Assembly (NCBI RefSeq): GCF_029504745.1
Contig: NZ_JAQFIQ010000016.1
Span: forward strand, 14,215 to 46,214
Origin: Breznakia sp. PF5-3
GTDB lineage: Bacteria; Bacillota_I; Bacilli_A; Erysipelotrichales; Erysipelotrichaceae
Reading direction: 5' to 3'
Length of the DNA: 32,000 nt
The notes below the pieces were generated by a model. It was not told the origin of the DNA. It made no database searches and saw nothing but the letters and a program-made list of their open reading frames with translations. Positions 9,493 to 13,837 of the stretch are shown piece by piece (position 1 is the first letter of the stretch; each line of letters starts with the position of its first letter). Position numbers and translations under genes: made by a program.

Positions 9493-10926
9493 ATGATGAT
9501 AAACATACCAGAAGGGTTTCCCAAAAACTTTTTATGGGGTGGAGCCATAGCAGCAAATCAGGCAGAGGGGGCTTGGGATGTTGAGGGTAAAGGTCCGTCA
9601 ATGGCGGATATTGAAGAATTACCATTGGAATATAGTAGAACCAAGGTAGTTGGATTTAAGCATACAAGACAAGAATTAATAACTGCAAGTAAAGATCTAA
9701 CAAAATTTTATCCACGACGTAGTGGAATTGATTTTTATCATACATATAAAAATGATTTAGCACTGATGAAGGAAATGGGATTTAAATGTTTCCGAACGTC
9801 TTTTAATTGGACTCGAATTTTCCCTAATGGGGATGAAGAAGAACCAAATGAAGCAGGATTGAAATATTACGATGATCTCTTAGATGAAATGATAAAACTG
9901 GGAATTGAACCGGTGATGACGATTTCACATTATGAAATGCCAATTCATTTAATTAGTACATATGGAGGTTGGTATTCTAAAAAAGTATTAGATTGCTTTA
10001 TGCGCTTTTGTGAAGTCTTATTTAAACGGTATCACAATAAAGTGAAATATTGGATTGTTTTCAATCAGATTAATTCATTAGGAGGTTGGGGTGAATTCGC
10101 CTCTTTAGGAATGTTGGAAGATGAGTTTGAGGATTGGGAAAGTGCAAAATATCAAGCCACACATCATCAATTAGTAGCAAGTGCGAAAGCGAAGGAATTA
10201 GCAAAAGCAATCAATCCTGAAATGCAAATTGGAATGATGTTGGGTGATGATGCAACATATTATGCTACCTGTGATCCAAAAGATGTATTTGCAAACACAC
10301 AATATATGCAGATGAGTGTATATTTCTATAGTGATGTTTTAATTCATGGAGAATACCCAGGATATGCAAAGCGTTATTTTGTGGATAACAATATTCATGT
10401 AGAGTTTGATGATGGGGATGAAGAATTATTAAAAAAGAACACAGTTGATTTTTTATCTTTTTCTTACTATCATACAAAAATTAAAAATGCAGCAGATAAA
10501 GATCCACAACCCAATCCATATCTTGAAAAATCGATTTGGGGTTGGGCAATCGATCCAATTGGATTTAGAAATTCATTGAATCAGTATTGGGATCGTTATC
10601 ATCTACCAATGTTTATTTCGGAAAATGGTTTAGGAGCATTAGATGAAGTGGTGGATGGAGAAATTCATGATGAGTATCGTATTGCTTATTTGAAAGCACA
10701 TATTGAGCAAATGAAGGAAGCAATCAAAGATGGTGTTAATGTATTTGGATATGCATCATGGGGACCAATTGATATTATTAGTTGTTCTCAAGGTGAAATG
10801 AGTAAACGCTATGGATATATTTATGTAGATTTAGATGATCGTGGAAATGGTAGTGGTAAGCGAATCAGGAAAGATTCTTTTTACTGGTATCAAAAAGTAA
10901 TTAAAACAAATGGAGAAGCATTGTAA
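9493..10926 (+). CDS. GH1 6-phospho-beta-glycosidase paralogue 1, acid/base Glu replaced by Gln
   Basis: [27 protein letters not shown], nucleophile motif FISENGLG and phosphate-binding type C-terminus [17 protein letters not shown]. The expected N-E-I/P acid/base motif reads F-N-Q-I-N (CAG at 10066-10068). Confidence 0.85.
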
Positions 10927-10937
10927 GGAGGAAGCGA

Positions 10938-12389
10938 ATGAAACAAATGCCAAAAGGATTTCCCAAAGATTTTTTATGGGGAGGAGCAATTGCTGCGAAT
11001 CAAGCAGAAGGTGCATATGATGAAGGTGGAAAAGGTTTGTGTGTTGCAGATCTATTAAAAGTACAAGACAAAGGAGATTTACGAAAAAAGTCTAATAAAG
11101 AAACAACGATGAAAGATATTGAATTTGCTTTGAATGATAAGGAAGGATATTATCCAAAGCGTTATGGAATTGATTTCTATCATACATATAAAGAAGATTT
11201 AAAGTTATTAGCTGGAACGGGAATGAATTCATTTCGTACAAGTATCAACTGGGCTCGTATTTTTCCTAATGGGGATGATGAGAAGCCAAATGAAGAAGGT
11301 TTACAATTTTACGATGATATGATTGATACCATGTTGGAAAATGGTATGGAACCATTGATTACGTTATCTCATTATGAAATGCCACTTAACATTGCTACGA
11401 AATACAAAGGATGGTATTCGCGTGAAACCATTGATATGTTTGTGCGTTATGCGGAAACCGTATTCAAACGTTATAAAGATAAAGTTAAGTATTGGATTCT
11501 TGTGAATCAGATAAATCTGATTCATCACGAATCATTCAATCATTTGGGGATTCCTGCTGATAGTGTTGAAAACTTGTGGGAAGCAAAATTTCAAGGTGTT
11601 CATAACGAATGTACAGCAAGTGCGATTGCAACGAAGATTGGACATGAAATTAATCCAGAATTCCAAATTGGAATGATGGTGTATGATGGCTTGAGTGAGC
11701 CGTTAACTTGTAGCCCAGAAGATGTTTTCGCTACTATGAAGCGCAATCAGATGGAATATTTCTTTAGTGATTTATTAATGCGTGGTGAATACCCTGGATA
11801 TGCAATTCGTTTCTTTGAAGAAAAAGGTTTTAATTTAGATATTCGTGAAGAAGATTTGAAAGTATTAAAGGAAAATACAGCTGATTTCTTTTCAATTTCG
11901 TACTATTATACAATTTGCTCTTCTGCAGAAAGTATGAAAGAGTATGGAGTTAATGAAGATGGAGCAATTAGCAATCCACATATTGATGCAAGTGAGTGGG
12001 GTTGGGGTATTGATCCACTAGGAATGAGAACGGTATTGAATTATTATTATGATCGCTATCAAAAGCCAATTATTATTGCAGAAAATGGTTTTGGAACGAT
12101 GGATACGGTAGAAGCAGATGGAAGTATTCATGATGAGCGAAGAATTGCTTATCTTAGTGAACATGTGAAAGCCATGAAAGAAGCAATTAAAGATGGTGTA
12201 GATGTGATTGGATATTATCCATGGGGACCAATTGATATTGTTTCTTGTTCATCAAGTGAAATGAAAAAACGTTATGGTTTTATTTATGTAGATCTTGATG
12301 ATTATGGAAAAGGCAGTGGTAAGCGAATGATTAAAGATAGTTATTATTGGTATAAAAAAGTTGTTGAAACAAATGGTGAAGAGGTATAG
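10938..12389 (+). CDS. GH1 6-phospho-beta-glycosidase paralogue 2, acid/base Glu replaced by Gln
   Basis: Same GH1 motif set (IIAENGFG nucleophile, [17 protein letters not shown]). The acid/base position reads V-N-Q-I-N (CAG at 11508-11510). SD AAGGAGG lies 6 nt before the ATG. Confidence 0.85.
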
Positions 12390-12400
12390 GAGGAATGAAC

Positions 12401-13837
12401 ATGAAAAAAGTACCAACAGGATTTCCAAAGGATTTTTTATGGGGAGGAGCAGTAGCTGCAAACCAATTAGAAGGAGCATGGGATCAAGGGGGGAAAGGAT
12501 GGTGTGTTGCTGATATTAATGAGTTTAGAGATGATGTAGAACTTGATAAAAAGTCAAATACTGAAATTACTACTTCTTATGTAATTGAAGCAATGAATAG
12601 TACAGATCGAATTTTTCCAAAACGTTGGGGTATTGATTTTTATCATACATATAAAGAAGATTTAAAATTGTTAGCAGGGTTAGGTTTAAAAACATTTAGA
12701 ACTTCAATTAACTGGGCTCGTATTTTCCCTAATGGTGATGAACAAGAGCCAAATGAAGAAGGATTGAAATTCTATGATGATTTATTTGATGAAATCATTA
12801 AAAATGGCATGGAACCAATGATTACAATGTCACATTATGAAATACCAATTCATCTTACGACACAATATAAAGGTTGGTATTCAAGAGAAGTGATTGATTT
12901 CTTTGTAAGATATGGAAAAGTAATATTAGATCGTTATCATACAAAAGTAAAAAAATGGATTGTAGTAAATCAAATTAATCTGATTGTTCATGAATCATTT
13001 AATCATTTAGGAATTGCTGAGGATAAAGTTGATGACTTACTATCTGCAAAGTATCAAGGAGTTCATAATGAGATGGTAGCTAGTGCATTGATTACAAAAT
13101 ATGCGCATGAGCATTATCCAGATAATGAAATTGGAATGATGTTGTGTGGAGGACCATCTTATGCTGCTACATGTAAATCAGATGATGTATTAGCTACGAT
13201 AAAAGTGAATCAAATGGAATACTTCTATGCAGATGTATTGTTGAGAGGTTATTATCCAGGATATGCTTTCCGTTATTTTGAAGATAAAGGAATTCATGTA
13301 AAATTCTATGATGGAGATGAAGAAGCATTAAAAAATACAGCAGACTTTATGTCATTCTCTTATTACTATACACAAATTTGTGATAAAGATTCTTATGATA
13401 AGGATGAGGGACCACGTAGAAATAAAGAGTTGGATGCAAATCCATGGGGCTGGTCAATTGATCCAAATGGGCTTCGAATTTTATTGAATGAATTTTATGA
13501 TCGTTACCAATGTCCTATTTATATTACAGAAAATGGTGTTGGATACTTTGATAAGTTAGAAGATGGAAAAATCCATGATCCTTATCGTGTAGATTATTAT
13601 CGCGATCATATCAAAGCGATGAAGGAAGCAATCAAAGATGGTGTTGATTTAAGAGGATACTATGCTTGGGGACCAATTGATATTGTTTCTTGTTCATCAA
13701 GTGAAATGAGTAAACGTTATGGATTTATCTATGTTGATATTGATGACTATGGTAAAGGTAGTGGAGATAGAATTAAGAAAGATAGTTATGCATGGATGCA
13801 AAAAGTAATTGCATCAAATGGTGAAGATTTAGATTAA
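12401..13837 (+). CDS. GH1 6-phospho-beta-glycosidase paralogue 3, acid/base Glu replaced by Gln
   Basis: Same motif set (YITENGVG nucleophile, [17 protein letters not shown]). The acid/base position reads V-N-Q-I-N (CAA at 12971-12973). The track start 12395 sits 1 nt after the SD GGAGG (12389-12393), so ATG 12401 has the better spacing. Confidence 0.85.

Follow-up and report, generated by a model that had tools for sequence, protein, structure and literature searches.

Glutamine at the acid/base position of three tandem family 1 glycosidases of Breznakia sp. PF5-3 and of a bacterial clade of related enzymes

We analysed a 32,000-nucleotide stretch of the Breznakia sp. PF5-3 genome (contig NZ_JAQFIQ010000016.1, positions 14,215 to 46,214 of the forward strand; hereafter the window), in which three glycoside hydrolase family 1 (GH1) genes stand in tandem behind the genes of a phosphotransferase system (PTS) and in front of two genes for small membrane proteins (Table 1). 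The three GH1 open reading frames (ORFs) are intact and are separated by spacers of 11 and 5 bases, each of which holds a GGAGG/GAGGA ribosome-binding sequence. Their products share 53–57% identity with each other; paralogue 2 is 100% identical to a database protein of Breznakia sp. PF5-3, and paralogue 3 shares 94% identity with one from Breznakia pachnodae, in agreement with an origin of the window in an Erysipelotrichaceae bacterium of the insect-gut type. All three enzymes carry glutamine (Gln) at the position where GH1 enzymes have the glutamate (Glu) that acts as catalytic acid/base, as a preliminary description of this DNA had claimed. Sequences with Gln at this column are called Q-type below, and those with Glu, Glu-type.

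Membership of GH1 is supported by homology (phmmer matches to solved GH1 structures with E-values between 1e-137 and 1e-158, and homologues that carry PF00232) and by fold, since the AlphaFold2 model of paralogue 2 (predicted local distance difference test, pLDDT, 92.2; predicted template modelling score, pTM, 0.93) matches 6-phospho-beta-glucosidases best (Foldseek template modelling scores of 0.86–0.92, query-normalised). In the phmmer alignments, N-Q-I-N faces the N-E-I-N or N-E-V-N of five solved 6-phospho-beta-glucosidases (6wgd, 3pn8, 3qom, 8ysv and 4ipl) without any gap. The predicted acid/base residue of such enzymes stands at the end of strand beta4, as Glu180 in LpPbg1 and Glu176 in SmBgl (Michalska et al., PMC3605045); in our model, strand beta4 comprises residues 185–189 and Gln191 lies right behind it. 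The Glu of the N-E-P or N-E-I motif at the end of beta4 is thus absent from all three enzymes, which are GH1 by fold and homology yet fail this one defining feature of the family. Indeed, the codons were found where the preliminary description had read them, and alignment with characterised enzymes confirmed the column. Its further claim, that the substitution is selected, was also borne out: a sequencing error or a pseudogene is ruled out by the intact ORFs, the identical database protein for paralogue 2 and the conservation of the residue throughout the clade described below.

Table 1. Genes and acid/base codons of the GH1 locus, in positions of the window
Feature	Position	Strand	Remarks
Mga-type helix-turn-helix (HTH) + PRD + EIIA (Fru/Mtl-type) activator, 638 amino acids (aa)	5363..7279	-	Cassette regulator, transcribed divergently
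PTS IIB, lactose/cellobiose family	7466..7780	+	TIGR00853, E = 1.7e-18, under curated cutoff
PTS IIC permease, lactose/cellobiose family	7818..9077	+	TIGR00410/TIGR00359, 155 bits against cutoffs of 236 and 434
PTS IIA, lactose/cellobiose family	9099..9437	+	TIGR00823, E = 1.1e-23
GH1 paralogue 1 (Q-type A), 477 aa	9493..10926	+	Gln192; nucleophile Glu377; phosphate residues S432/K438/Y440
CAG, Gln192, acid/base column of paralogue 1	10066..10068	+	Aligned to NEIN of 6wgd and 3pn8
GH1 paralogue 2 (Q-type B), 483 aa	10938..12389	+	Gln191; Glu198 (Q+7); Glu273 (LpPbg1 Arg267 column); nucleophile Glu382; NQME
CAG, Gln191, acid/base column of paralogue 2	11508..11510	+	Alignment to solved enzymes
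GH1 paralogue 3 (Q-type C), 480 aa	12395..13837	+	Gln193; Glu200; Glu275; nucleophile Glu379; NQME
CAA, Gln193, acid/base column of paralogue 3	12971..12973	+	Codon read directly
DUF6198/YczE-like small membrane protein, copy 1, 199 aa	13840..14439	+	NCBIfam membrane_YczE, E = 1.5e-21, below cutoff
DUF6198/YczE-like small membrane protein, copy 2, 199 aa	14506..15105	+	NCBIfam membrane_YczE, E = 3.5e-22

How common this variant is among bacterial GH1 sequences had been left open in the preliminary description, and our survey of such variants and their genomic contexts answers that it is very widespread and of single origin. The NQ motif was found in 117 of the best 120 database homologues of paralogue 1, in all 120 of paralogue 3 and in 119 of 120 of the remaining one; in other words, 356/356 readable homologues out of 360 have Gln and none shows Glu, while the four homologues that the pattern match left unread, one of them a fragment of 353 aa, include no counter-example. 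In the wider family (the best 150 representatives at 50% identity), 126 sequences have Glu and ~9 are Q-type, which points to a compact subfamily within the phospho-glucosidase radiation. Neighbour-joining of 138–142 full-length sequences gathered all 65–69 Q-type tips under one ancestor, with no other tip among them, in 29/30 bootstraps, and bacterial 6-phospho-beta-glucosidases with Glu make up both the sister group and the closest relatives of this clade. A degenerate-DNA scan, for which each species was represented by one genome, found the variant across several phyla and in at least 120 of these genomes, and among the matches listed the Gln codon is CAG in 64 cases and CAA in 58. Since a single base change (a transversion) from either codon restores Glu, yet no reversion was seen, we conclude that Gln is actively maintained and Glu selected against. 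These comparisons depict the Q-type clade as old, monophyletic and widespread, with a Glu that appears to have been permanently replaced.

At least four Q subtypes can be recognised. Type A, that of paralogue 1, reads NQIN..WGEF..SLG; types B and C (paralogues 2 and 3) have NQME at a second motif; and type D, represented by P0121 and by a gene of [Clostridium] innocuum (locus L004, 19354-20799), combines NQVNLVPxVQFGSLG with NRMQ. A further Q form has E-C-G in place of E-N-G at the nucleophile (P0128, also P0510); the same N-to-C change was noticed in the Glu-type representatives P0135, P0151 and P0164. The hosts listed include Erysipelotrichaceae, Lachnospiraceae, Enterococcus, Neobacillus, Niallia, Paenibacillus, Clostridium, Collinsella and Atopobium, together with several Actinomycetota, Enterobacterales, Spirochaetia, Synergistaceae and Pelolinea, and type B is carried by Bacillus paralicheniformis, Brevibacillus laterosporus and Shouchella clausii. 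Lineages of the clade come from marine sediment, soil, insect gut, rumen and pathogens (e.g., Pelolinea, Vallitalea, Abyssisolibacter, Demequina, soil Bacillaceae and Listeria). Public annotation of these proteins is generic: NCBI gives the relatives no more specific name than ‘glycoside hydrolase family 1 protein’, and the labels ‘6-phospho-beta-glucosidase’, ‘BglH’ and even ‘amygdalase’ also occur. We found no description of a natural Gln variant of bacterial GH1 in the full-text literature, a search of open-access papers only, by which absence is not proven.

The preliminary description had also stated that the nucleophile motif E-N-G and the C-terminal segment typical of 6-phospho-specific enzymes are intact, and both statements agree with our results. 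At the I/V-T/A/S-E-N-G motif, which closes strand beta7, the three paralogues read ISENG, IAENG and ITENG, with the nucleophile codon GAA at 10621, 12081 and 13529, and the nucleophile Glu is present in 125/125 clade members. The 6-phosphate pocket, defined in LpPbg1 numbering by Ser432, Lys438 and Tyr440 and by a longer L8a loop (PMC3605045), has its three residues in all the paralogues and is conserved in the clade (Ser 122/125, Lys 125/125 and Tyr 124/125). The L8a loop is one residue longer as well and carries the expected Gln/Glu435, as E435 in paralogue 1 and as equivalents in paralogues 2 and 3 (Glu435 in 125/125). More generally, Gln22, Asn179, Tyr317, Trp349, Glu375, Trp423, Ser432, Lys438 and Tyr440 are kept in 122–125/125 clade members. 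The curated NCBIfam cutoffs for named enzymes of this kind (NF007154, NF007158, NF007356 and NF011589) are nevertheless missed by all three proteins, with best scores of 541, 546 and 513 bits against 623–686.

The +1 subsite shows another picture. In LpPbg1 and SmBgl it is lined by Asn183, the Phe187 loop, Cys241 and Arg267/Arg263 (PMC3605045); in the Q clade, the Asn183 column holds Ser/Leu, the Phe187 loop contains Glu, the Cys241 column holds Asp/Gly (Asp in paralogue 1, at the SmBgl position) and the Arg267/Arg263 column holds Glu or Ser/Asn. The loop Glu stands at Q+7, seven residues beyond the Gln, in paralogues 2 and 3 and at Q+9 in paralogue 1, within an ESF/EF segment that is near-invariant inside types A, B and C; the Arg267 column is Glu in paralogues 2 and 3 and Ser in paralogue 1. 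The aglycone pocket of the Q clade is consequently predicted, on these columns, to be more acidic, with lining positions that are acidic or neutral. Note that two candidate markers were discarded: loss of the aglycone Arg267, because Arg occurs there in only 4/37 Glu-type representatives, which leaves the gain of Glu in types B/C as the one notable change at this column, and the extra Glu residues as universal features, because type D lacks them. When clade-specific columns were scanned with balanced sampling, those both clade-specific and clade-universal were Gln192, Leu205, Cys431, Met274, Leu283, Thr84 and Thr328, and no clade-specific conserved Arg or Lys was among them. Leu205 constitutes a second invariant marker, replacing Gly/Ala/Ser 12–13 residues past the Gln.

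Concerning the genes around the three enzymes, IIB, IIC and IIA are encoded separately and together, as in the Lac family (TC 4.A.3), and all three fall below equivalog cutoffs; the IIC in particular is divergent from the named equivalogs of NCBIfam. PF02302 (IIB), PF02378 (IIC) and PF02255 (IIA) are recorded for the orthologous neighbours in other genomes. The divergently transcribed activator belongs to the AcpB/EbpR/MafR family of NCBIfam (143 bits; cutoff 130) and also gives PRD/antiterminator and EIIA matches, and just 2 bases separate the stop of the third GH1 gene from the start of the first DUF6198 gene. Two structures were observed in the intergenic DNA. A hairpin with a 10-bp stem (AAGGATTTC...GAAATCCTT) lies at 9443-9466, within the 55 bases that separate IIA from the first GH1 gene, and is followed by TTTTATT on the + strand; as a partial terminator or a processing site, it could uncouple expression of the transporter from that of the hydrolases. 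An inverted repeat with a 16-bp stem lies at 7339-7375, between the regulator and IIB, and could serve the PRD activator as operator or terminate transcription of the upstream gene. Further downstream, an orphan lactose/cellobiose-family PTS IIA gene (17706-18050; PF02255, E = 2.3e-27) stands 2.6 kb beyond the cassette with no adjoining IIB or IIC, and five same-strand ORFs occupy 18221-21630, of which four (18221-20086) have no Pfam match and the last encodes a 515-aa protein with a weak Mbeg1-like domain.

The arrangement of the window recurs in distant genomes. In all eight contexts that we read (Coriobacterium glomerans, Kineothrix, C. innocuum, Breznakia pachnodae, Enterococcus gallinarum, Hungatella hathewayi, Clostridium saccharoperbutylacetonicum and the window), the Q-type GH1 gene follows a lactose/cellobiose-family IIB-IIC-IIA set with a divergent PRD/Mga regulator, and an HPr gene is sometimes present. 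Clustering the neighbours at 110 species loci with the motif inside a GH1 ORF, where each locus covers 8 kb and counts are hence lower bounds, placed IIC at position -2 in 78/110 loci, IIA at -1 in 69/110, IIB at -3 in 66/110 and a PRD/Mga regulator of ~634 aa, in the same relative position as in the window, in 62/110. Less frequent companions, the small families among them being named by reading their sequences and not by family search, are HPr (14/110), a DUF6198 membrane protein directly downstream (11/110; the same slot as in C. innocuum), an EamA/DMT-like permease, so named by sequence reading, in the DUF6198 slot of 10/110 other loci, and a Cof-type HAD phosphatase (10/110). No sulfatase, reductase, esterase, other aglycone-processing gene or nitrile/isothiocyanate-related gene recurred in these 110 loci of 8 kb. 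In E. gallinarum, H. hathewayi, C. saccharoperbutylacetonicum, Kineothrix and Coriobacterium glomerans, the Q-type enzyme is the sole hydrolase of its operon, from which it follows that it would have to turn over the phosphorylated import and release glucose-6-phosphate.

Some loci depart from the common arrangement. As an example, one operon of C. innocuum (L004, 15175-20799) contains a Glu-type GH1 gene (TINEQS, 6-phospho-beta-galactosidase-like) together with a Q-type D gene, and at a distance of 5 kb stands a separate cassette of Q-type A; the presence of both types in one operon suggests complementary and not redundant roles. In Escherichia sp. ESNIH1 (L075, 3709-7351), the Q-type gene follows an RpiR-type regulator and a fused EIIBC, and a megablast comparison of this gene with 5,426 complete E. 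coli genomes gave no match. A conjugative IncF plasmid of Enterobacter ludwigii (L130, 1756-6440) has a Q-type gene near a PTS EIIC and a carbohydrate porin. Listeria monocytogenes NCTC7974 (L129, 3028-8405) carries a Q-type cassette immediately upstream of a Vga-type ABC-F lincosamide-resistance gene, and its GH1 protein, which reads NQINLIQFEPF, falls in the Q clade. Like the window, this locus encodes IIB, IIC, IIA, an NQIN GH1 enzyme and a PRD regulator; unlike it, the GH1 protein (~53% identity) lacks the Leu-Gly marker and the regulator stands downstream on the same strand. Judging by gene order next to the Vga-type gene, the cassette would correspond to lmo0914-lmo0918 and its GH1 gene to lmo0917. 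Expression of lmo0917 rises in soil extract (PMC3179493), and that of the linked PTS gene lmo0915 in mouse spleen (PMC2679221).

Compared with the known GH1 6-phospho-beta-glucosidases (EC 3.2.1.86), i.e., 6WGD of B. licheniformis, SmBgl of S. mutans (3PN8/4F79), LpPbg1 of L. plantarum (3QOM), BglA of E. coli (2XHY), BglA-2 of S. pneumoniae (4IPL) and 8YSV of E. faecalis, the Q-type enzymes show 45–55% identity, the same (beta/alpha)8 fold, nucleophile motif, glycone residues, phosphate pocket and long L8a loop, and are likewise encoded beside a lactose/cellobiose-family PTS and a PRD regulator. They differ from them by the Gln in every member, by the markers Leu205, Cys431 and Met274, by scores under the family cutoffs and by forming a separate monophyletic clade. 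The closest engineered counterpart is Gan1D E170Q (4ZE5/4ZFM), in which the same change was made at the same column (NEQ to NQQ) of a 6-phospho-specific GH1 enzyme; it was deposited as a ‘catalytic mutant’, and 4ZFM holds intact cellobiose-6-phosphate. BglA E166Q (8IVY) is another engineered GH1 acid/base mutant with this residue change. Both are inactive traps made in the laboratory, whereas the change in the Q clade is natural, ancient, fixed and accompanied by co-varying residues.

Altogether, these results lead us to a tentative preference, which we hold at nearly even confidence, for the interpretation that the Q-type enzymes are a clade of phospho-beta-glucosidases working without a general acid on a particular class of substrate. 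Acid/base mutants of retaining glycosidases stay active on good leaving groups only, and combined with the Gan1D trap this makes it the simplest reading that Q-type enzymes do not protonate the leaving group. Because the E170Q change traps cellobiose-6-phosphate, hydrolysis of ordinary O-linked disaccharides would be unlikely unless another residue compensates; the earlier expectation that these are not usual hydrolases of the cellobiose-6-phosphate kind thus gains by analogy with this mutant. The recurrence of exporter-like genes (DUF6198 or EamA/DMT-like) downstream also counts in favour of this interpretation. A bolder formulation, to which we give less credence, is that Q-type enzymes form an unrecognised catalytic class of GH1, PTS-coupled and devoid of a protein general acid, either for S-, N- or acyl-linked glucosides or those with cationic aglycones, or relying on a small molecule or a group of the substrate as base.

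According to this acid-free interpretation, the locus would be a self-contained PTS catabolic cassette in which the PRD/Mga-type activator controls IIB, IIC and IIA, the PTS imports a beta-glucoside while phosphorylating its glucose at O6, the three diverged GH1 enzymes then free glucose-6-phosphate, and the two DUF6198 proteins may export the released aglycone. The nucleophile (Glu377, Glu382 or Glu379) would attack C1 to form a 6-phospho-glucosyl enzyme with no proton help from the protein, and without such assistance the natural aglycones should be able to depart by themselves or to supply the proton that they need. Candidate substrates are therefore O-glucosides of the acyl, enol or acidic-phenol kind and glucosides with S-linked, N-linked or cationic aglycones. 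The invariant Gln would hydrogen-bond with and position the hydrolytic water, like Gln187 in myrosinase, and another group would act as base, perhaps a small anion or a carboxylate that is specific to the clade and close to the +1 site. The paralogues, which differ mainly at aglycone-lining positions, probably share this chemistry and split the range of aglycones between them.

Several observations weigh against the acid-free interpretation. The cassette architecture is that of ordinary cellobiose-type operons; the very broad ecology suggests a common substrate over an exotic activated glycoside; and the conserved Glu at Q+7 or Q+9, in a loop that lines the +1 subsite, could be a displaced acid/base that would allow ordinary substrates. 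The pLDDT of the model is at its lowest (77) in this loop, residues 191–200. The corresponding alternative, the main rival to the acid-free interpretation, is that the enzymes are ordinary 6-phospho-beta-glucosidases, acting on cellobiose, gentiobiose, laminaribiose or aryl glucosides, in which the acid/base role has moved to this Glu and/or to the Glu of the Arg267 column. It would agree with the near-invariance of ESF/EF in types A, B and C, with the wide distribution and ordinary-looking operons, and with the fact that the segment adjoins the +1-subsite residues Asn183, Phe187 and Arg267/Arg263 of SmBgl/LpPbg1 (PMC3605045). We nonetheless judge such a relocation unlikely, since type D, which reads PxVQF and NRMQ, has kept the Gln although both columns lack an acidic residue, type A carries its Glu at another position than types B/C, Glu-type enzymes sporadically have acidic residues in this loop too, and the invariance of Gln in particular would be left unexplained. 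We know of no precedent for migration of the acid/base in clan GH-A. If, for want of a general base, the 6-phospho-glucosyl enzyme were resolved by an anion or a thiol in place of water, these proteins would be phosphorylases, transglycosidases or natural ‘thioglycoligases’, with phosphate as acceptor giving, for example, beta-glucose-1,6-bisphosphate. Small anions indeed rescue acid/base mutants of retaining glycosidases, which can work as thioglycoligases; an acceptor site could be shaped by the invariant Gln and Leu205, and the Glu-type and Q-type neighbours in one C. innocuum operon hint at different reaction roles. As the first step would still call for an aglycone able to depart with no acid catalysis, the 110 loci show no linked beta-phosphoglucomutase or other partner enzyme, and the Q-type enzyme is alone in its cassette in most genomes, we regard non-hydrolytic transfer as improbable. 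It is more improbable still that the proteins are catalytically dead sugar-phosphate binders for sensing or regulation, comparable to the chitinase-like lectins without catalytic Glu. The inactivation of Gan1D towards cellobiose-6-phosphate by the same change and the failure of all three proteins to reach the NCBIfam 6-phospho-beta-glucosidase cutoffs would fit this idea; against it, the nucleophile and all glycone contacts are invariant over hundreds of sequences, three diverged tandem copies are maintained, and most cassettes encode no other candidate hydrolase, so that with an inactive enzyme the phosphorylated import would become a dead end.

The remaining alternative is the proposal of the preliminary description that the enzymes are 6-phospho-beta-thioglucosidases which, like classical myrosinases, cleave glucosinolates or related thioglucosides, here after import by the PTS. 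Enterococcus gallinarum, which carries a Q-type gene, is a relative of E. casseliflavus, a degrader of glucosinolates. The Q-type enzymes share with the QE-type plant myrosinases (e.g., of Sinapis alba) the GH1 fold and the natural pair of Gln and Glu nucleophile (PMC6691170), which implies departure of the leaving group without acid catalysis; lactic acid bacteria and E. coli break down sinigrin in a PTS-dependent way with a GH1 phospho-glucosidase, and Hungatella hathewayi, which has Q-type genes, is listed among the species with pttS/pbgS homologues (PMC8660893). In contrast to myrosinases, however, the Q clade arose independently, nested among bacterial 6-phospho-beta-glucosidases and not within the plant line of descent, and its members are cytoplasmic, PTS-coupled and equipped with a 6-phosphate pocket. 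In Sinapis myrosinase, Arg194 and Arg259 bind the glucosinolate sulfate, and ascorbate serves classical myrosinases as catalytic base; when these Arg sites are compared by offset, Q+7 is Glu in paralogues 2 and 3 and the Arg267 column reads Glu, Glu and Ser. Moreover, Gln is not diagnostic of this chemistry, because Glu-type enzymes already perform it: the EE-type myrosinases PEN2 and PYK10 cleave glucosinolates with their Glu retained and with basic residues facing the aglycone pocket (PMC6691170), and sinigrin degradation is attributed to BglA/AscB of E. coli and to CfPbgS with a BglF-type PTS (PMC8660893). The acidic or neutral lining predicted for the Q-type pocket, set against the basic one of glucosinolate-acting enzymes, would not favour an anionic sulfated aglycone. 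CfPttS/CfPbgS of Companilactobacillus farciminis (PMC8660893) resemble our system in that a plant glucoside is imported by a PTS and then met by a GH1 phospho-glucosidase, but the sinigrin transporter CfPttS is a BglF-type IIBCA, unlike the lactose/cellobiose-family PTS of the Q-type cassettes. The spread of the clade over marine sediment, soil, insect gut, rumen and pathogens fits poorly with a substrate restricted to Brassicales, and no sulfatase or nitrile/isothiocyanate-related gene is linked in the 110 loci. From the earlier claim of 6-phosphoglycosidases for thio-linked or activated aglycones, we thus retain the Gln/Glu pair and the preference for an acid-free reaction, while the step to thioglucosidases and glucosinolate metabolism is not supported; glucosinolates are one possibility, of low probability, and not the one that we favour.

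GH1 phospho-beta-glucosidases have been treated as mechanistically uniform, and a large and ancient clade with Gln at the acid/base column departs from this view. Its existence implies one of three things: a substrate class not recognised so far, a mode of acid/base catalysis new to clan GH-A, or a reaction that does not end in hydrolysis. The clade reaches into gut bacteria (Enterocloster, Hungatella, [Clostridium] innocuum, Enterococcus gallinarum and Collinsella), industrial bacilli and Listeria monocytogenes, so that an acid-free class, if true, would represent a new activity in hundreds of gut, soil and marine bacteria as well as in L. monocytogenes (lmo0917). Identification of the substrate would assign a function to a common gene cassette of the microbiome and may reveal how gut bacteria activate dietary or host glycosides. 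Once their substrate is known, Q-type enzymes could also serve as natural scaffolds for biocatalysts of the thioglycoligase type.

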